Shown: positions 4,275 to 50,731, counted from the stretch's first letter. The stretch is DNA of 51,728 nt from Betaproteobacteria bacterium (GCA_032123035.1 JAQBFV010000002.1:1-51728); one strand, 5' to 3'. The notes: generated by a model from the sequence alone, not told the origin. A program made the numbers and translations.

Positions 4275-5981
4275 CTAGTCGAACCGCCCGGTAAGATCCA
4301 CGGTGCGGCGCACCTCGGCGAGGCTGGTGCTGCCGTCGATGACGCGCTGCAGCCCCTCCTCGGCAAGCGACCGGAATCCCTTGGCGAGCGCCGCGGTGCG
4401 GAGTTCCTTGGCGGTTCCCCGGCGCGCGACGAGCTCGTCCAGATCTCCGTCCATCACCAGCAGCTCCATTATGGCCATGCGGCCTTTGTAGCCCTTGTTT
4501 TCACAGTTCTTGCAGCCGACCGGGCGGTAGACGTAGGAAACTTTCTGTCCCAGCGAGCCGAAGAGCTGCCGCTCCTCCTTAGGCGGGGCATAGGCTTCTT
4601 TGCAGTGCGTGCAGAGCACGCGAACCAGCCGTTGTGCGATCACTCCAATGATGTTGCCAGCCATGATTTCCGGCGTTATGCCGATATCGAGCAGCCGGGG
4701 AAAGGTGCCCAGCGCAGAGTTCGTATGCAGCGTCGTGAACACCTGGTGGCCGGTCATCGCCGCGCGGAACGCCATCTCGGCTGTTTCCTTGTCGCGCACT
4801 TCGCCCACCAGGATGATGTCGGGATCCTGCCGCATGATCGAGCGAATCCCATCCGCGAACTCCATGCGCGCCACCTCGTTCACCGAGGTCTGTCGCATCA
4901 GTGTGAGCGGGTACTCAACCGGATCCTCCAGGGTCATAATGTTGACGGTCTCGTCGTTCACCTGTGCCAGAAGCGAGTAGAGTGTCGTCGTTTTTCCGCT
5001 GCCCGTGGGGCCGGTGACCACCAGTATGCCCTCGGGCCGCGCCAGCATCACGTCGAGCTTGGCTACGGTCTCCTTCGACAGATTCATGCGGTCCAGGCTG
5101 ATGATCGATTTTTCGCGGTCGAGCACGCGCAGCACGATGTTCTCGCCATAAATGGTGGGCTGTGCGGAGACCCGGAAATCGATCGGGCGGCCATTGAGCG
5201 TCAGCGACAACCGGCCGTCCTGGGGCGAGCGCGTCTCGGCGATGTTCATGCCGCTGACAACCTTGATGCGCACCGTGATGCCGGGCAGGTAAGTCTTGTG
5301 CAGGCTGCGCACGGTCTCGAGCACGCCGTCGATGCGGTAGCGAATGCGTAAGAAAGCATACTCCGGCTCGAAATGGATGTCCGAGGCGCTGCGTTTCACC
5401 GCGTCCACCAGCAGCGCGTTAACCAGCCGGACCATGGGCTGGGTGTACTCGTCACCACCGGCTACCTGAAGGCTCTCGTAATCGATCTCGCCGGTCTCGA
5501 TCTCCTTGAGGATGCCGTCGACCGAGAGCTCGTAGCCATAGAACTGGTCGATGTATTCACCGAGTTGGGCTTCGCTCGCGAGCTGGGTCTTGATCTCGAT
5601 TTGAGCCCCCAGCATGGCGCGCAACTGGTCCATCGCGACCACGTTGAAAATCTCGGTGGTGGCGATGGTGAGAATCTGGTCAGCAGGATCGAACGCAATC
5701 GGCAAGATCCGGTTGCGGCGCGCAAATTCCTGGGCCACCATCCTCAGCGCCTCGGGATCGGCAACCACGTGCCCGAGGTCGATCGCCTCCTGCCCAATGG
5801 TGCGCGCCATGATGTCGCGGATGGCGCTCTCGGTGACGAAACCGAGGCGCACCAGCAGGCGGCCGATGGGGATGTTGTTGTGGCGCTGCTCGGCCAGTGC
5901 GATCGAGAGCTGATCGGTGGTGATCAGCCCCTGCTGGACCAAAAGTTCGCCGAGACGGAGTTTCTTGCGCTGTTCAGCCAT
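4275..5981 (-). CDS. GspE/PulE/PilB-family secretion ATPase with N-terminal MshEN-type domain (MshE-like)
   Basis: 568 aa. Walker A is VVTGPTGSGKTTTLYS. Tetracysteine cluster CTHCKEAY...CKNCENKGYKGR. The N-terminus RLGELLVQQGLITTDQLSIALAEQ matches the MshEN c-di-GMP motif. Confidence 0.9.
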   Translation of the reverse strand: MAEQRKKLRLGELLVQQGLITTDQLSIALAEQRHNNIPIGRLLVRLGFVTESAIRDIMARTIGQEAIDLGHVVADPEALRMVAQEFARRNRILPIAFDPADQILTIATTEIFNVVAMDQLRAMLGAQIEIKTQLASEAQLGEYIDQFYGYELSVDGILKEIETGEIDYESLQVAGGDEYTQPMVRLVNALLVDAVKRSASDIHFEPEYAFLRIRYRIDGVLETVRSLHKTYLPGITVRIKVVSGMNIAETRSPQDGRLSLTLNGRPIDFRVSAQPTIYGENIVLRVLDREKSIISLDRMNLSKETVAKLDVMLARPEGILVVTGPTGSGKTTTLYSLLAQVNDETVNIMTLEDPVEYPLTLMRQTSVNEVARMEFADGIRSIMRQDPDIILVGEVRDKETAEMAFRAAMTGHQVFTTLHTNSALGTFPRLLDIGITPEIMAGNIIGVIAQRLVRVLCTHCKEAYAPPKEERQLFGSLGQKVSYVYRPVGCKNCENKGYKGRMAIMELLVMDGDLDELVARRGTAKELRTAALAKGFRSLAEEGLQRVIDGSTSLAEVRRTVDLTGRFD

Positions 5982-7227: not shown

Positions 7228-9164
7228 TGAGCCGCGCCCGCCGGTTCCGTCGATTCCTGGATTCGCTGGTTTGGCGGCCGCAGATCTTTCGGCACTTTGC
7301 TCAGATCGGGTTTGGGCTCCGGTTGCGGCAGGAAACGCTGGAAGAACTTGAGCTCGTCACTCTCGAGCGTCGGATTGGTGACGATGGTCGTCCGCAAGAA
7401 GATGATGAGCTCGGTCTTGGTGGACTCCTCCTTTTTCAGGGCGAAGGCTTCCCCGAGGTCGGGAACGTTGCCGACAAAAGGCACCTGGTCGCGGTTACTT
7501 TTCACGTCATCCTGCATCAGACCGCCAAGAACGACGGTCTGGCCATTGGCGATCTGCAGCACGGATTCCATCTCGCGGATCTGCACCTGGGGCACCGGGT
7601 TGGTGACGCCGGCTGCGGCCAGGCTCGGGTTGGGATCGTTGACAAACTTGATGACGCGCGAAATCGTGGGGCGAATCGTGAGCGAAACCCGCCCATCGTC
7701 GTTGATTTGCGGCGTCACCCCCATCACCACCCCAACGGCCACTGTCTTCGCAGTCGTGGTGAAGTTTACAAGCGAACTCGTTTGATTCTGGGTGGTGTCA
7801 GACTTAACCTCGAAGTAGACGACATTGTCCACGACCTTGAGCAGCGCGGTCTGGTTGTTGAGCGCCATCAACTTCGGGCTCGACAGGACCTTGGTGTTAC
7901 CGAACTCCTCGAGCAGCTTCACCGTGAGCTGGACTTGCCCTACGCGCACGTTGGCCTCGTTGTAGGAAAGCGCGAAGATGTTCGCAAGCTGAAGGCCACC
8001 CAGAGTAGTACCAAAGCCCGCGAGCTGGCCCAGCGTTGAGAAGGCGATGCCACCGCTTTCCGAGACGCGTGACCAGTCGACTCCCGCCTGGTAGTTACGC
8101 GAAAGCTGCACTTCGACGATGGTTGCCTCGATCAGCACCTGGCGCTGCATCGAGGTGACGATGCTGTCGATGTGCGCTTGGACCAGTTGATGCTGCTTTT
8201 CCGTGGCGTTAACCGTCACCGTTCCCGACATGGAATTCACGATAATGTCGTCCGGCAACAGCGAGGTGCGCTGCGCTCCCCCGGTTGCTGTGATGACCGA
8301 CGAGGCCAGCGTCGGCGCCCCCTGGCCGGCGCGACTGGCGGCTTCTATCTGCTTCGTGCGCAACTCCTGTTCCTGCTTGACCAGCGCGAGGCGCTCGGCC
8401 CGGGCCTGGGCATCGAGGCTCTGCAGGCGGGTCGAGTTCAGGATGGCGCGGATGTTTTCGCGCAGTTCCCCCCAGAAATCGTTGCGTGAGGTCATGGTCA
8501 CGGTCGTGCTCGACCCCCCGGCCCCACCCGGCGCGGCTGTGGCGCCAGTTCCGCCACTCGCGGCACCAATCTCACCGGAAACGCCAATCGTCGAATTGGT
8601 ATTGCGGACCATGTTCACGTAGCCGACGCGGTACGTCTTGACGTAAGACACATCGGGCGAAACGATGATCGTGTTGCCCTCCACGCGGTAACGCATGCTC
8701 ACCTGCATGGTGACACGTTCCAGTATCGCCGGCAGCGTTTCATTGACCGCATTCAAGCTCACCAGGCCGGTGATCCCGGGGTGGATATCGATGTTCTGCT
8801 TGGTGTCGCGCGCCAGGGCGAGGAGCAGATCCTTGACCTGCACTTCGTTCACCACCACGGTGTAGGTCTGCGGCTTGACCGTCGGCTTCGGCGGGGGCAC
8901 GAATGTGCTGACGCGCGCCGGGGGCGGAATGGCCCGGTCCGCCTCGGGCTTTGGTCTGGGCTTTTCGAGCCCGATGTGGCCTTTAGAAGTCGGGATATAC
9001 GGCTTGTAGGCCGAGCAGCCCGCGACCATCACGCTGACAATGAGCGGGACTATCCACCCGCGTACCGAGAATACCGGGAACAGACCCAATTTCAGCAGCG
9101 CGGTGTCACTCAGGCGTGACTTCGCAGAGCCGTGACTGCCTTCTGATTCCGCTACAGATCGCAT
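7224..9164 (-). CDS. secretin (GspD/PilQ/MshL family), probable lipoprotein
   Basis: 646 aa. Lipobox-like LIVSVMVAGCSAY. The C-terminal secretin signature is VVLGGLMQD...VPFVGNVPDLGEAFALKK. Confidence 0.85.
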   Translation of the reverse strand: MRSVAESEGSHGSAKSRLSDTALLKLGLFPVFSVRGWIVPLIVSVMVAGCSAYKPYIPTSKGHIGLEKPRPKPEADRAIPPPARVSTFVPPPKPTVKPQTYTVVVNEVQVKDLLLALARDTKQNIDIHPGITGLVSLNAVNETLPAILERVTMQVSMRYRVEGNTIIVSPDVSYVKTYRVGYVNMVRNTNSTIGVSGEIGAASGGTGATAAPGGAGGSSTTVTMTSRNDFWGELRENIRAILNSTRLQSLDAQARAERLALVKQEQELRTKQIEAASRAGQGAPTLASSVITATGGAQRTSLLPDDIIVNSMSGTVTVNATEKQHQLVQAHIDSIVTSMQRQVLIEATIVEVQLSRNYQAGVDWSRVSESGGIAFSTLGQLAGFGTTLGGLQLANIFALSYNEANVRVGQVQLTVKLLEEFGNTKVLSSPKLMALNNQTALLKVVDNVVYFEVKSDTTQNQTSSLVNFTTTAKTVAVGVVMGVTPQINDDGRVSLTIRPTISRVIKFVNDPNPSLAAAGVTNPVPQVQIREMESVLQIANGQTVVLGGLMQDDVKSNRDQVPFVGNVPDLGEAFALKKEESTKTELIIFLRTTIVTNPTLESDELKFFQRFLPQPEPKPDLSKVPKDLRPPNQRIQESTEPAGAAQ

Positions 9165-35116: not shown

Positions 35117-35191
35117 GCCGGCATAGCTCAGTGGTAGAGCAACCGCCTTGTAAGCGGTAGGTCGTCTGTTCGAGTCAGACTGTCGGCACCA
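35117..35191 (+). tRNA. tRNA-Thr (anticodon UGU), CCA encoded
   Basis: Hand-folded cloverleaf. Acceptor GCCGGCA/TGTCGGC, D arm AGCTCAGTGGTAGAGC, anticodon stem ACCGC/GCGGT with loop CTTGTAA, T arm GTCTG-TTCGAGT-CAGAC, then ACCA. Confidence 0.85.
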
Positions 35192-46981: not shown

Positions 46982-47539
46982 TTAGTGAAGGTGCTTGCCG
47001 CGCGGATGCAGCGGTATGACGGTGGAGGATGACGCCGCCGTCTCGCCGGTGACCTTGCGGGCCGCCCAATCCTGGTCGAAGAGCTGGTTCGCCAGCACCT
47101 TCACCTGGTTGACGTCGGCCTGGCCCAGGTGTCGCGAGAGCAATGTCGTCACGTCCTCGACAACGCATTGTCGGCGGAACTCGTGGATCGACTCGGGGCT
47201 CGGCCCGACGAACATCTGGTAGAACTCATCGTCGCCGTTTTCGGGGTAGTAGGTAACCTCGATCTCGGACGAGTATTCCGTCAACGTCCCGACGTTCTGG
47301 AACGCCTCGCCGAGCCGGTTGTGAAAGCTGCGGCCCACGTCGCCAGTCCAGCAGATCGTCAGCGTGCGCTCGCGGGGATCGAACTGGATGCCCGGCTCCT
47401 CGCGCTCGAGGCTCACCGCTTCCGCGATCCTCTCGACGTCGAGGTACTCGAGCCACGGCCGCAATGCGTGCTCGAGTTGCGAGAGGCGCACGCCCCTGCC
47501 GAGAAAGACATTGCCGTGCACGTGGACTTCGATGCGCAT
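46982..47539 (-). CDS. hypothetical protein (185 aa), no recognisable motif
   Basis: Start chosen at MRIEVHVHGNVFLGRG inside ORF 46982..47587. Codon usage is high-GC and the gene is followed by a terminator. I recognise no family. Confidence 0.5.
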   Translation of the reverse strand: MRIEVHVHGNVFLGRGVRLSQLEHALRPWLEYLDVERIAEAVSLEREEPGIQFDPRERTLTICWTGDVGRSFHNRLGEAFQNVGTLTEYSSEIEVTYYPENGDDEFYQMFVGPSPESIHEFRRQCVVEDVTTLLSRHLGQADVNQVKVLANQLFDQDWAARKVTGETAASSSTVIPLHPRGKHLH

Positions 47540-47888
47540 CGTCTGCGGCGGACGGGCCTGCAATGAAAAGGGCAGACAGAATAGCATATTCAGAGCATGA
47601 GACGAAGGGGGGTAACCGAAGTCAAAAGTCAGAAGGCGATAACTCAGGTGATGGGTGACGGGGCGGCTTCGCCGGAAAGTGAAGGCGGCAGGAGGAACGA
47701 TAAATCCGTAATCATCCTCGCTTCAAGTCTTCCTCTTATTCCGTACGCATACGTCTTCTTTTCTTGAAATAGACGGTTTGGTCATACGCCGCGGCGGTCC
47801 TGTCCTGGGCATGGGCTGTTGGGTCGGCTGGGGCGCAGGAGGAAGTTGAAGGAAGGCGCTGCCGCTTAATCCGCTACAGCACTTACAC

Positions 47889-47916
47889 AGACCCCGCTTC
47901 GGCGGGGTTTTGTTTG
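47889..47916 (+). terminator. rho-independent terminator-like hairpin with no upstream ORF
   Basis: CCCCGC (47892-47897), loop TTCG, GCGGGG (47902-47907), followed by TTTTGTTTG. Homologous to the hairpins after both PilZ genes. Confidence 0.5.
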
Positions 47917-47972
47917 TGGTGCCATGGATTTTCTGCGCCACGTTTACGGATCGCATGGAGTTTTGTTTGCGT

Positions 47973-47988
47973 TGTGACAAAATTCACG
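47973..47988. promoter_or_regulatory. CRP/Clp-type palindrome TGTGA-N6-TCACG
   Basis: tTGTGAcaaaatTCACGa matches 9 of 10 positions of TGTGA-N6-TCACA. It lies 172-187 nt upstream of the 48160 ATG. Only the TGTGA half (48998-49002) is conserved before module 2. Confidence 0.35.
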
Positions 47989-48159
47989 AAAAAGGATGAT
48001 TGCCCTATCCCAAAGGGGACGCTTGTCCCGTGCGCAAAAATGAAGTTTTGATGGATAGTGATCCTAGTAAGTGTGTGGCGCTTCCGGCCTGTCTTTTTGG
48101 GCTGTTGGGGTTTTCCGAAAATAGCAGCATTGCGTCGATGCGCTCAAGGGGAGTTGATC

Positions 48160-48462
48160 ATGCGCTGTCTATTCACACATAAGTGGGTAACGGTATGGGA
48201 AGAGAGTTTTATCAGGTCTTATGTTCCTTGCAGGAGATGTAAACGGTGCGGAACGATGGAGCGCAGTATTTACGATGCTCTATCCCCAGACGTTGCATGG
48301 GAGACAATAAGGGAGCGCAGCTACGTTAAGGCGCAGCAAATCCGGATGTTTCGGCAACCCTCTTCCCGGCTCGACCAACTGGCTCATACATTAGGGCTGC
48401 GTCGAAGCAGGACGAGCGATCGGGCGAGATCAGCAAAACGCTCCGAGTTGATCCGAAGTTAA
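48160..48462 (+). CDS. small Cys/His zinc-ribbon-like protein with basic C-terminal tail (module 1)
   Basis: The ATG is preceded by AAGGGGAG. MRCLFTHKW...VPCRRCKRCGTMERSIYD...LAHTLGLRRSRTSDR. The paralog at 49130..49447 keeps the same Cys/His positions. Confidence 0.55.
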   Translation: MRCLFTHKWVTVWEESFIRSYVPCRRCKRCGTMERSIYDALSPDVAWETIRERSYVKAQQIRMFRQPSSRLDQLAHTLGLRRSRTSDRARSAKRSELIRS

Positions 48463-48547
48463 CGGGCGTAAACGGTACAGCGAACCACATTCCGCTCTGG
48501 CGGGCTTGGGCTGGGGCAGACTTAACACATCAGCTTGAAGGGTCAAA

Positions 48548-48886
48548 ATGACAGCGAAACTACCGGAATTGAGAAGAGATCAGCGGTACCATGCCGCGCT
48601 GCCGGTGTTCCTGGGGAACACCAAGGGTGCCACACGCGACATGAGCACCTCGGGCGTGTACTTCTGGAAGGACGGCATGTGCATGTGTGTGCCCGGGGAG
48701 TCAATCAGCTTTTCGATAGAACTCAAAACGGCCACGGGCAGGATGATGTGGAAATGCCAAGGAGCCGTCGTCCGCACCGAACCGCTCGGTGACATGGTCG
48801 GTGTGGCGGCGAGAATCACCGAATCGACGATGGAGCCTGCGTGGACGGATGTCGTACGCATAAGGGGTATAGGCGACTTGTCCTAG
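48548..48886 (+). CDS. stand-alone PilZ-domain protein (module 1)
   Basis: 112 aa with a GAAGGG SD. RRDQR (RxxxR) and DMSTSG ((D/N)xSxxG) lie 16 residues apart, as in c-di-GMP-binding PilZ domains. Confidence 0.7.
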   Translation: MTAKLPELRRDQRYHAALPVFLGNTKGATRDMSTSGVYFWKDGMCMCVPGESISFSIELKTATGRMMWKCQGAVVRTEPLGDMVGVAARITESTMEPAWTDVVRIRGIGDLS

Positions 48887-48913
48887 CGCTTTTGCGTAAT
48901 CCGTATCAGCACT

Positions 48914-48945
48914 CACACAGACCCCGCTCTGGCGGGGTCTGTGTG
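48914..48945 (+). terminator. 14-bp perfect hairpin after PilZ-1 (no U-tract)
   Basis: CACACAGACCCCGC, loop TCTG, GCGGGGTCTGTGTG. No T-run follows, so intrinsic termination is uncertain. Confidence 0.35.
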
Positions 48946-49129
48946 GGCTGCCTGCGTTAGCGGCTAGTCGCCCGCCACTCCCACGGCGGCACCGGGTTGT
49001 GATCGGGCTAATCATTCCGGATAGTGGTAAAAACACCAACGCGGACAGGCTTTCTGCATAACGGATCTTGTACAAAAGCAGCTCCCTTGATAGCGTTACG
49101 ACATTACGTCAATGCGCTCAAGAGAGTTA

Positions 49130-49447
49130 ATGATTCGTTGTCTATTCACCCATAAGTGGGTTATAGGAAAGGAATATAACTTTAGGTCTCGTGTTCCTGA
49201 CATTAGTTTTGTTATTCCTTACAGAACATGCGAACGGTGTGGAACGATGCAGCGCGGTATTTACGATACGTTTTGGAGAGACACGTCCTGGCAGACAATG
49301 AGAGAGCGTGACCACAATATATCGGAGCAAAGCCGGATTGTTCGGCAATCCTCTTCTTGGATCGACGAATTGGCTCATTCATTGGGACTGCGTCGAAGCA
49401 GGACGAGCGATAGAACGGGATCAGGAAACCGCTCTGCACAGACCTGA
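49130..49447 (+). CDS. small Cys/His zinc-ribbon-like protein with basic C-terminal tail (module 2)
   Basis: The ATG is preceded by AAGAGAG. MIRCLFTHKW...RTCERCGTMQRGIYD...LAHSLGLRRSRTSDR. Confidence 0.55.
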   Translation: MIRCLFTHKWVIGKEYNFRSRVPDISFVIPYRTCERCGTMQRGIYDTFWRDTSWQTMRERDHNISEQSRIVRQSSSWIDELAHSLGLRRSRTSDRTGSGNRSAQT

Positions 49448-49535
49448 AGTTATGGGCCTTAACGTTATTGCGAATTACACATTGCGCTGCGGCGGGCTTG
49501 GGCTGGCGCAACCGGATCAGCTTAACAGGCGGAAA

Positions 49536-49847
49536 ATGAGACTAGGACCACCAAACGAAAGAAGAGACCAGCGGATCGATGTCGCGCTGCCGGTGTTCCT
49601 AGAGGACGCTATCGGTGTCACGCGCGACGTGAGCGCATCGGGCGTGTTCTTCTGCATAAGCGGCACGTATGCATACGGGGAGTCCATCAGCTTTTCGATG
49701 GGACGAAAAACCGAATCCGGCAAGTTCATGCTGAAATGCCGCGGCGTCATCGTTCGCACCGAATGGGACGATAACACGGTCGGTTTGGCGGTGAGACTCA
49801 CAAAAAGCGGCGATGAACCCTATAAGGACGCGATCTCATACGCATAA
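49536..49847 (+). CDS. stand-alone PilZ-domain protein (module 2)
   Basis: Internal ATG of ORF 49308..49847 aligned to the module-1 start. RRDQR and DVSASG motifs are present. 103 aa. Confidence 0.7.
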   Translation: MRLGPPNERRDQRIDVALPVFLEDAIGVTRDVSASGVFFCISGTYAYGESISFSMGRKTESGKFMLKCRGVIVRTEWDDNTVGLAVRLTKSGDEPYKDAISYA

Positions 49848-49898
49848 GGAGGCGATTCTTCGTAGAGCTTCCGCGCAACAGGTCGCAGCACTTACCCA

Positions 49899-49926
49899 GG
49901 CCCCGCTTCAGCGGGGTTTTTGTTTG
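49899..49926 (+). terminator. rho-independent terminator after PilZ-2
   Basis: CCCCGC (49901-49906), loop TTCA, GCGGGG (49911-49916), followed by TTTTTGTTTG. Confidence 0.6.
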
Positions 49927-50037
49927 TATCTTGAACGTCTGTTATGGGTCGAAAGCGAATCCTACGCAGCGAGTGAGCAGACGCCGCCCAGCAGCGCAGG
50001 CAGGCGTCGACCAGGCGGCGTAGAAGCGCAGTAGCGG

Positions 50038-50731
50038 TTATTTGAGGTGCTTGGCGAGAAAATCCATCGTCCGGCGCCAAGCGAGCTCGGCCGCTGCGGG
50101 GTCGTACTTCAGGATCGGCAGGTTCTTCGAATCCGCCGTCTCGTTGGAAAAGGCGTGCTTCGCGTTGTAGCGGTGGAACTCAAAACTCACCTTGGCGCCG
50201 CGCAGCTTTTCTTCCAGCTCGTCGACCTTCGCGATCGGGAAGGGCACGTCCTCGGTGGCCCAGTGGCCCATCAGCGGCGCCTTGATCCTGGACGCATCGA
50301 CAAACTCGAGCGGCGGGTAGCCGTACCAGACGACAGCCGCGTCTGCCTCCGGAACGTTCACCGCCGAAAGAAGCGTGAGCGCTCCGCCCATGCAGAAGCC
50401 GGTCACTCCGACCTTGGTGCAGCCGGACGCCTTCAGATGCTGGACCGCGCCGCGCACGTCCTGGCCGGCGGCGTCGCCGAAGTTGAGGTTGGTCATCAGA
50501 TGCTCGGCTTCGTTGGCCGCGAGCGCGACCTTGCCGCGGTAGAGGTCCGGCACCAATGCCCGGTAGCCGGCCGCCGCCAGCTTGTCCGCGACGCCTTTGA
50601 TCTGATCGTTGAGACCCCCACCACTCCTGGATCACCACGATGCCCGGCGCGACCGCGCCCTGCGCAGGCTCGCCGAGATAGCCGGCCACGGCCTGGCCGT
50701 CCGGCCGCTTGTAGCTGATCATCTTGCCCAT
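50038..50731 (-). pseudogene. dienelactone hydrolase family protein interrupted by a 1-nt frameshift
   Basis: ORF 50180..50731 gives MGKMISYKRPDGQAVAGYLGEP...GIVVIQEWWG. ORF 50038..50556 continues ...VPDLYRGK...GVTGFCMGGAL...H. [28 protein letters not shown] is readable if one C of the C5 run 50615-50619 is removed. Confidence 0.75.

Follow-up and report, generated by a model that had tools for sequence, protein, structure and literature searches.

PilZ is the most widespread receptor of cyclic diguanylate (c-di-GMP), and the targets of single-domain PilZ proteins are known in a handful of cases. The locus described here raises the question whether a stand-alone PilZ protein may be encoded side by side with its partner. 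It lies in a stretch of 51,728 nt from Betaproteobacteria bacterium (GCA_032123035.1, JAQBFV010000002.1:1-51728), which is referred to as the window. One islet of the window (Table 1) contains two head-to-tail units, ∼985 nt each in size; each unit consists of one gene for a small Cys/His protein, named Z, followed by one stand-alone PilZ gene. Two non-coding modules accompany the genes, an upstream module (P) and a terminator module (T). With moderate confidence, we propose that the units encode a split two-part c-di-GMP receptor, in which PilZ would be the sensing part and Z the accessory or output part.

The linkage between the two genes recurs outside the window. Translated searches of the fetched contigs identified 55 distinct Z copies, of which 48 are intact, 5 are broken and 2 are cut by contig ends. 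In 13 of the 53 assessable distinct copies, a PilZ gene of the same subfamily is located 3′ of Z on the same strand, at a distance of no more than 260 nt. No other gene follows Z nearly as often as PilZ does; the remaining types of neighbour were each found in one to three loci only. Counted from the other gene, Z precedes 13 of the 27 PilZ copies in the fetched loci. Loci that were retrieved through PilZ alone are unbiased regarding Z; among the seven PilZ copies of these loci, four have an intact or remnant Z upstream, including one intact Z (L057, 9611–9907) that the gene caller had left uncalled.

In addition to adjacency, natural fusions were also observed. In P0037 and P0034, the tail of Z is joined in frame and directly to the EKRxDxR arm of PilZ; the in-frame fusion P0039 has a linker of ∼45 residues instead, which resembles a read-through intergenic region. 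P0037/P0034 and P0039 are two independent fusion events. The hairpin that follows Z also differs between the arrangements. After solo Z, it is a full terminator (GGGGTTTTTGTTTGTGG); inside the Z-PilZ pairs, CTTGGGC replaces the T run, as seen in 10 other pairs. Loss of the U-tract fits co-transcription of Z and PilZ. Taken together, the 13 distinct adjacent pairs and the two independent fusions support a non-random association of Z and PilZ. The original prediction had described the units as a two-gene module, had guessed at a c-di-GMP output and had suggested a gene-neighbourhood census; in that census, Z homologs do adjoin PilZ elsewhere, and since the association is non-random, a c-di-GMP output module is a reasonable reading.

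Several observations weigh against a dedicated receptor pair. PilZ is missing beside about 75% of the Z copies, which are found as single genes with a terminator of their own, in arrays, or before other genes. Z-only arrays are present in L023 (four Z), L035 and L041, and elsewhere Z precedes one sensor-less HisKA/HATPase kinase, hemerythrin or PEP-CTERM protein. In L052, L054 and L008, module P is followed immediately by PilZ, with no Z between them. On the neighbour-joining tree, paired Z are scattered among solo Z, therefore specific co-evolved partnerships are unlikely. In the AlphaFold2 (AF2) model of one natural fusion, both domains fold, but the predicted template modelling score is 0.48, the predicted local distance difference test (pLDDT) values of the linker are below 50, and no confident interdomain contact is seen. 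The ratio of nonsynonymous to synonymous substitution rates (omega) between the paralogs of the window is high, 0.52 for Z and 0.80 for PilZ, which indicates that the paralogs are evolving fast. Z also has no host-like codon bias; the G+C content at its third codon positions (GC3) is 0.46–0.53, compared to 0.78–0.86 in the neighbouring genes.

Many of these observations would suit the main alternative, in which the small gene Z functions on its own, encoding for example a regulator or nucleic-acid-binding protein, and adjacency to PilZ is a by-product of shared P and T modules and variable hot spots, with no coupling. The majority of Z genes form transcription units of their own that end in a full terminator, in many cases opposite a convergent housekeeping gene, and some stand in the Z-only arrays; module P is placed directly before PilZ in two loci (L052 and L054), and before one 161-residue gene plus Z in L008, L015 and L016; the pairing is phylogenetically labile, and AF2 gave no confident interface. 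However, the two independent in-frame fusions place both domains in one polypeptide, and the U-tract of the intervening hairpin is consistently lost in pairs. PilZ is also the commonest neighbour (13/53), and both families are tiny and reside in genomes of thousands of genes. Uncoupled Z genes are, in our opinion, a somewhat unlikely explanation. The Z-PilZ pair is linked; it is not an obligate module, so that of the original proposal the association stands and the strict pairing does not.

The loci in which Z is followed by other genes deserve description. In L030 and L034, one cytoplasmic kinase composed of HisKA and HATPase_c, with no recognisable sensor domain, starts 48 nt after Z. In L025 and L038, one hemerythrin-domain protein is encoded 34 nt after Z. 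These kinase and hemerythrin neighbours hint that Z can be coupled to signalling proteins other than PilZ. Between module P and Z, three loci encode one protein of 161–164 residues (L008, 2229–2714; L015, 3385–3879; L016, 3384–3878), which shares 59–62% identity between these loci and has no Pfam or NCBIfam match; thus, Z has a second recurrent neighbour. L059 (7095–10291) contains one subfamily PilZ with a decayed Z remnant and terminator upstream; it lies beside a divergent pair of PilS-type (6TM_PilS) kinase and sigma-54 response regulator. Downstream of Z in L037 (3268–4572), there is one open reading frame (ORF) of ∼434 residues, the start of which resembles, by eye, a group II intron reverse transcriptase.

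Z is a real coding protein of a tiny, unnamed family. One word-indexed search of 5.8 billion proteins returned 17 Z homologs, all unnamed and metagenomic, and one exhaustive profile search of 1.84 billion cluster representatives returned 49 clusters. The Z ORFs of the window have no 100% match in the protein collection, although the PilZ genes of the window are present (P0087 and P0093). Gene callers miss Z probably because it lacks the third-position G+C bias of the host; therefore, counts in protein databases understate the Z family several-fold. Could the Z ORFs be non-functional, that is, a non-coding leader, an RNA element or decaying DNA upstream of PilZ? They are uncalled in the window and L057; GC3 equals the G+C content at the first and second codon positions, and between the window copies the nucleotide identity (73%) is well above the residue identity (54%), with omega of ∼0.5. 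Against these points, the ∼100-codon frame is open in 48 of the 53 copies that are not at contig edges, that is, in all 48 intact distinct copies, compared to 2.3–4.4 stops per copy in the other five frames. Differences at codon positions 1, 2 and 3 number 1606, 1273 and 2045 (3 > 1 > 2), and the median omega for Z is 0.38; the substitution pattern is that of coding sequence, not of drift. The indels of Z are in multiples of three, Cys, His, Trp and Gly residues are invariant, in-frame fusions to PilZ exist, and no Rfam match was found. We consider non-functional Z ORFs extremely improbable.

Each Z protein is composed of one N-terminal C-x3-H ... C-x2-C unit, one two-helix region (W-E-T-M-R-E-R ... 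L-D-Q-L-A-H-T-L-G-L-R-R-S-R-x-S-D) and one basic tail. The motifs quoted for the small proteins in the original prediction are real, and they are family-wide in 19 homologs. In these homologs, R2, C3, H7, W9, C30, G31, R35, W47, E52, R53, R65, A75, H76, G79, R81, R82, R84 and D87 are invariant, and C27 is kept in at least 90%, whereas the loop between the two knuckles (residues 10–25) is variable; the C-terminal part includes the invariant block L-A-H-x-L-G-x-R-R-x-R-x-x-D. The AF2 model of Z1 (pLDDT 67) contains four strands, two helices (residues 50–65 and 69–77) and one disordered basic tail (residues 84–100). C3 and H7 are located at the start of strand 1, and C27-x2-C30 is located in the hairpin turn between strands 2 and 3, at a pLDDT of only 67. 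The model is compatible with one Cys-His-Cys-Cys (CHCC) zinc ribbon followed by one helical module, and Z may bind zinc.

Z has no significant match in Pfam, NCBIfam, PHROG or PADLOC and no sequence match in the PDB. Foldseek searches against PDB and BFVD gave no structural neighbour at E ≤ 0.001; the WRKY domain reached a probability of only 0.33. The original prediction had noted a resemblance to small zinc-ribbon proteins of prophages. Repeated matches of this kind were indeed obtained, to DUF1660 (PF07874; best 14.3 bits compared to the gathering threshold of 21.4, E 0.029–0.06 in 6 of the 19 members) and to phrog_2670 (best E 0.0026; 11 of the 19 members); NF041603 (PSPA7_2676 family) was matched with a best E of 0.038. 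All of them are sub-threshold, the DUF1660 and phrog_2670 matches span only residues 3–36 of Z, and a search of 2.9 million viral contigs revealed neither Z nor any member of the PilZ subfamily. As a candidate, a helix-turn-helix of Xre type in the LAHTLGLRRSR segment was rejected; the hhalign probability was 0.09% (LAHTLG against LAxKxG), and the AF2 model has no third helix. MshEN-like and I-site-like (RxxD) c-di-GMP motifs were considered for the tail of Z by eye, and too few positions agree.

The PilZ proteins are more familiar. PilZ2 scores 28.6 bits on PF07238, above the gathering threshold of 22.5. PilZ1 scores 18 bits and falls below it, yet is 49–66% identical to subfamily members that carry PF07238, so that the profile search suggested in the original prediction recovered one of the two proteins directly. 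Motifs were defined as RxxxR in the N-terminal arm plus [D/N]hSxxG (doi 10.1101/814665); as had been predicted, both are kept in the window, RRDQR in PilZ1 and PilZ2, DMSTSG in PilZ1 and DVSASG in PilZ2. In the alignment of ten subfamily sequences, R13, S33, S35 and G36 are invariant, and R9 and D31 are kept in at least 90%. PilZ1 and PilZ2 belong to one tight subfamily of ∼95 residues; a profile built from ten members matches at least 295 proteins in the database, most of which have 94–98 residues. Named members are annotated as 'PilZ domain-containing protein' and come from beta- and gammaproteobacterial metagenome-assembled genomes (MAGs).

For structural analysis of PilZ, the fused homolog P0037 was modelled in place of PilZ1 and PilZ2. 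Its PilZ half forms the six-stranded β-barrel of PilZ domains with an AF2 pLDDT of ∼95 or more, and the nearest PDB folds are the PilZ domains of MotI, BcsA, MrkH, VCA0042 and Alg44 (Foldseek probability 1.0, ∼3 Å over ∼80 residues). As we read the model, PilZ ends after the last barrel strand and has no C-terminal helix. Judged from the conserved motifs and the homolog model, the PilZ proteins of the window likely bind c-di-GMP.

The organization of the islet is summarized in Table 1. All four ORFs of the original prediction are present and intact, and the tandem duplication it described, with conserved leader, intergenic block and 3′ hairpin, was recovered by repeat search. The search identified four collinear blocks (261, 139, 136 and 61 nt; 73–75% identity) at an offset of 973–991 nt, one 21-nt leader that is 90% identical between the units and one 33-nt block between Z and PilZ that is 88% identical; as a whole, the units share 73–75% nucleotide identity. 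The 53-nt repeated core of T is located at 47856–47908, 48886–48938 and 49865–49917. Thus, the islet reads T-(upstream-Z-hairpin-PilZ)-T-(upstream-Z-hairpin-PilZ)-T. For the terminator hairpin and promoter-module motifs, 0 matches were expected in shuffles, which excludes chance. The residue identity between unit 1 and unit 2 is 54% for Z and 49% for PilZ, close to the half that had been estimated by eye. Tandem Z-PilZ arrangements recur in other contigs (Z-PilZ-Z in L018, PilZ-Z-PilZ in L048, and L052), therefore the duplication is old, as had been argued; its retention under selection, the second part of that argument, is only weakly true at the omega values given above.

Table 1. Features of the islet, with positions counted from the first nucleotide of the window
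Feature	Position	Strand	Evidence
Islet (absent from L061; insertion or replacement)	47678..49954	+	blastn homology ends at 47677 and resumes at 49955; G+C
Terminator module T, copy 1: 25-nt conserved flank, GC stem with TTCG loop, U-tract	47856..47920	+	repeat family D4; terminator scan match 47889-47910
Upstream (promoter-like) module P, with CRP-type palindrome TGTGA-N6-TCACG at 47973-47988	47921..48125	+	21 distinct copies aligned
Z leader with Shine-Dalgarno sequence (AAGGGGAG)	48126..48159	+	repeat D8/D6, 90% identical to 49102-49122; kept before Z elsewhere
Z1: 100-residue CHCC zinc-ribbon-like protein, conserved helical region, basic tail	48160..48462	+	ORF, homologs, AF2
Hairpin without U-tract (disarmed terminator) between Z1 and PilZ1	48486..48518	+	repeat family D5
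PilZ1: 112-residue stand-alone PilZ (RRDQR, DMSTSG)	48548..48886	+	Pfam PilZ 18 bits (sub-gathering); subfamily profile, orthologs 78-87% identity
Terminator module T, copy 2: perfect 14-bp inverted repeat 48914-48945, weak U-tract	48886..48945	+	D4, I4
Unit-2 upstream region of second type, then conserved Z leader	49024..49129	+	80% identical to region before Z in L037
Z2: 105-residue paralog of Z1, 54% identical	49130..49447	+	ORF, homologs
Hairpin without U-tract between Z2 and PilZ2	49478..49510	+	D5, 88% identical to 48486-48518
PilZ2: 103-residue stand-alone PilZ (RRDQR, DVSASG)	49536..49847	+	Pfam PF07238 28.6 bits, cut-off 22.5
Terminator module T, copy 3	49865..49927	+	D4; terminator scan match 49898-49919

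Module P covers ∼200 nt after the first terminator, and 21 distinct copies of it were found in other contigs (for example L054, 3904–4038, and L008, 1984–2118). It precedes Z, PilZ, the 161-residue gene or one small membrane ORF. The half-sites (GTGA....C.C) of the palindrome TGTGA-N6-TCAC(G/A) are among the few invariant columns of the otherwise diverged module. The CRP-type palindrome alone gives 1 match in the window, compared to 0.92 expected by chance; therefore, only its invariance across the 21 diverged copies argues for function. Module P may serve as promoter or operator. The upstream region of unit 2 is unrelated to module P of unit 1 and is shared with L037; alignment rejected the possibility that it is one internally deleted P module, and it represents a second upstream type. 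Within the 51.7-kb window, module P occurs once and the T hairpin motif is present only inside the islet; in L003, L008 and L057, T also follows PilZ or cargo genes. Overall, the family consists of four recombining modules (P, Z, PilZ and T), which occur in many permutations.

Rfam 15 was scanned over the whole window at gathering thresholds and over 47500–50100 by E-value. No match to the islet was obtained, c-di-GMP riboswitches included; only sub-threshold RsmY (21 bits, compared to the gathering threshold of 57) and istR appeared, on the terminator hairpins. One small RNA in the unique GGA-rich left part (47600–47925) was considered and rejected, with a fold z-score of -0.64 and no conservation in any locus.

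The origin of the islet was analysed by comparison with L061, one contig of a close relative (a 'Betaproteobacteria bacterium' MAG) that is collinear with the window at 84–88% nucleotide identity. Both share the order TctC-DLH-gap-DUF6806-CMD-TPP enzyme-dehydrogenase-MFS, where DLH is dienelactone hydrolase. In place of the islet, L061 has ∼700 unrelated nt that resemble a methyltransferase fragment, and two other relatives have one SnoaL gene beside DUF6806. The islet, 2.28 kb in size, was therefore inserted at a variable site between genes or has replaced other sequence there, and its flanks are ordinary metabolic and transport genes. Its G+C content is 54%, compared to 63% in the remainder of the window, and the GC3 of its genes is 0.46–0.73, compared to 0.78–0.86 in neighbouring genes; the G+C values counted by hand in the original prediction (0.433, 0.383, 0.600 and 0.633) were exact. 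Among the features of genomic islands, the locus has presence/absence polymorphism against L061 together with atypical G+C and GC3. In other contigs, the neighbourhoods of the Z/PilZ loci are unrelated and different in every locus. Several loci occur in single MAGs (3 contigs in SG8_41 and 2 in SF_Bin19), and the members of the unit belong to uncultured sediment Betaproteobacteria.

Is the islet then the cargo of one unrecognised mobile or selfish element, with the hairpins as recombination sites or with Z and PilZ as an addiction- or defence-type pair, and PilZ not serving housekeeping c-di-GMP signalling? The polymorphism at a syntenic site, the low G+C and atypical GC3, and the change of context from locus to locus are what such an element would leave, as are the confinement of the hairpin motif to the islet within the window, the high omega and the many paralogs. 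PrimPol/PriCT_1/DUF3987 primases are typical of integrative elements and satellites; one is encoded 6 kb from a solo Z in L001 (9413–11555), and none was seen near the other loci. However, neither the flanks in the window nor the genes called in the fetched loci include an integrase, transposase or relaxase. The repeat search revealed no direct repeats at the islet junctions; the original prediction, which had noted no integrase, transposase or flanking direct repeat, was correct on these points. Modules P and T have no terminal inverted repeats or target duplications. The hairpins are ordinary terminators with GC stem, tetraloop and U-tract, not attC-like; PADLOC-DB v2 gave no match at E ≤ 0.1 for the four proteins or the DUF6806 neighbour, and the viral contigs carry neither Z nor the PilZ subfamily. 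Mobile cargo is a very unlikely explanation in our judgement. As specific candidates, integron cassette, transposon and prophage were all rejected, with no recombinase, no attC-like features, no viral copies and hairpins that are intrinsic terminators.

The flanks of the islet also revealed several features of their own. DUF6806 was considered as part of the system and rejected, being present in no other Z/PilZ locus and belonging to the conserved flank. Its gene (46982–47587, minus strand) probably starts in fact at ATG 47539, as all 120 listed homologs are ∼185 residues in size and align from residue 17; with this start, the spacer to the islet edge is ∼140 nt. At the left edge of the islet, L061 has one hexamer microsatellite, GGCAGA/GGCAAA repeated ∼10 times (∼7840–7900, reverse complement), compared to unique GGA-rich sequence in the window (47620–47677), which indicates that the junction region is unstable in the lineage. 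On the other side, the DLH gene (50038–50731, minus strand) is split over two frames. Its N-terminal part is in the ORF 50180–50731 and its C-terminal 172 residues (profile positions 45–216) are in the ORF 50038–50556, whereas the DLH of L061 is intact and 230 residues in size; either the gene has become a pseudogene by frameshift or the sequence contains an error. The only match in the window at the Rfam gathering level is one tRNA gene (35117–35188, 73 bits); ordinary genes fill the 12 kb that separate it from the islet, which is therefore no tRNA-associated island. The MshE-type ATPase that had been offered as context for a c-di-GMP module is present (T2SSE and MshEN, 4275–5981, minus strand); nothing links the islet to this ATPase, which is 42 kb away.

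How does the Z-PilZ pair compare to known systems? PilZ itself and the logic of an accessory domain plus PilZ are well known. In YcgR, MotI (DgrA) and PlzD (PilZN plus PilZ) and in MrkH (PilZN2 plus PilZ), a canonical PilZ domain is located at the C-terminus, the RxxxR arm in the linker and an output domain at the N-terminus; this is the layout of the fusions P0037, P0034 and P0039. MotI, MrkH and VCA0042 are also among the top structural neighbours of the fused PilZ half. Different from these proteins, the N-terminal part here is one zinc-ribbon-like unit plus helices, not a PilZ-like β-barrel; in the window each part has its own gene, and no flagellar or fimbrial genes are nearby. The words 'zinc' and 'ribbon' are absent from the PilZ domain survey (doi 10.1101/814665), and our literature search found no paper connecting PilZ with a zinc ribbon. 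Neither the Z family nor the PilZ architecture of Z plus PilZ, in its split or fused form, has been described.

Stand-alone adaptors (MapZ/PA4608, HapZ, CdbS and the PilZ proteins of Xanthomonas) are similar in that they are single-domain proteins of ∼100 residues that bind one separate partner, and both c-di-GMP motifs are kept in the islet as in MapZ. However, the partners known for them, such as CheR1, SagS and FimX/PilB, are large enzymes or machines whose genes lie elsewhere or belong to functional operons, whereas the candidate partner here is tiny, unnamed, multicopy and encoded directly upstream. Compared to these adaptors, the PilZ proteins of the subfamily are shorter (∼95 residues), and the C-terminal helix is missing from the model of the fused homolog. 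With the Cys-rich phage and prophage proteins of DUF1660, phrog_2670 and NF041603, Z shares ∼35 N-terminal residues, C-x3-H-x-W ... C-x-R-C-G. The similarity is sub-threshold and confined to the N-terminal third of Z; nothing in these proteins corresponds to the remaining, conserved two thirds, and no viral Z was found. Promoters or terminators are also carried by interspersed intergenic mosaic elements such as the Correia- and BIME-type repeats. Like them, T and P recur at many loci and mark recombination joints between genes; different from them, P and T are found beside two gene families only and are not spread over the genome, with none elsewhere in the window.

On the basis of these comparisons, the proposed two-part receptor may be pictured as follows. 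The islet would be one lineage-specific insertion with two diverged tandem mini-operons. The RxxxR arm at the N-terminus and the DxSxxG motif most likely enable the minimal PilZ protein to bind c-di-GMP, and Z would take the role of the N-terminal domain in proteins of YcgR/MotI/MrkH type. Loaded with c-di-GMP, PilZ would attach to Z so that the RxxxR arm sits where the two parts meet, which is also its place in the natural fusions. Binding of PilZ would control whether the conserved helical or basic surface of Z is accessible to its target, which might be a nucleic acid or a protein partner. In this picture, the anatomy, the coding status, the distribution of the family, the adjacency, the fusions and the insertion polymorphism are observed, whereas co-transcription, the binding of c-di-GMP and zinc, the physical contact of Z with PilZ and the output are inferred. 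The family of four modules would grow by tandem duplication and be reshuffled by recombination in one uncultured betaproteobacterial lineage.

Only two features, the zinc-ribbon-like unit and the tail rich in arginine, point to a nucleic acid as the target. Extending the proposal in this direction, Z could be a c-di-GMP-controlled output domain that binds DNA or RNA and is gated by its cognate PilZ, in ∼ten or more diversifying paralogous mini-operons, some of them rewired to the kinase, hemerythrin or 161-residue protein. We think this extended version is unlikely. Within it, the TGTGA-N6-TCAC palindrome of module P would be a possible DNA target, leading to autoregulation. If true, the units would represent a family of modular second-messenger effectors that can be plugged into different pathways, a kind of family not seen in model organisms.

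The members have all been obtained from uncultured Betaproteobacteria of sediments, which limits the practical value of the family. For biology, the locus shows how one signalling family can spread within a lineage without mobility genes, via shared promoter and terminator modules. Z itself, which has no name, Pfam model or structural neighbour, is a candidate PilZ partner tied to PilZ by adjacency and two independent fusions. If the coupling is real, Z would add one new type of N-terminal domain to the PilZ repertoire, and the pair would be an unusually clear natural case of one receptor that exists both split and fused.

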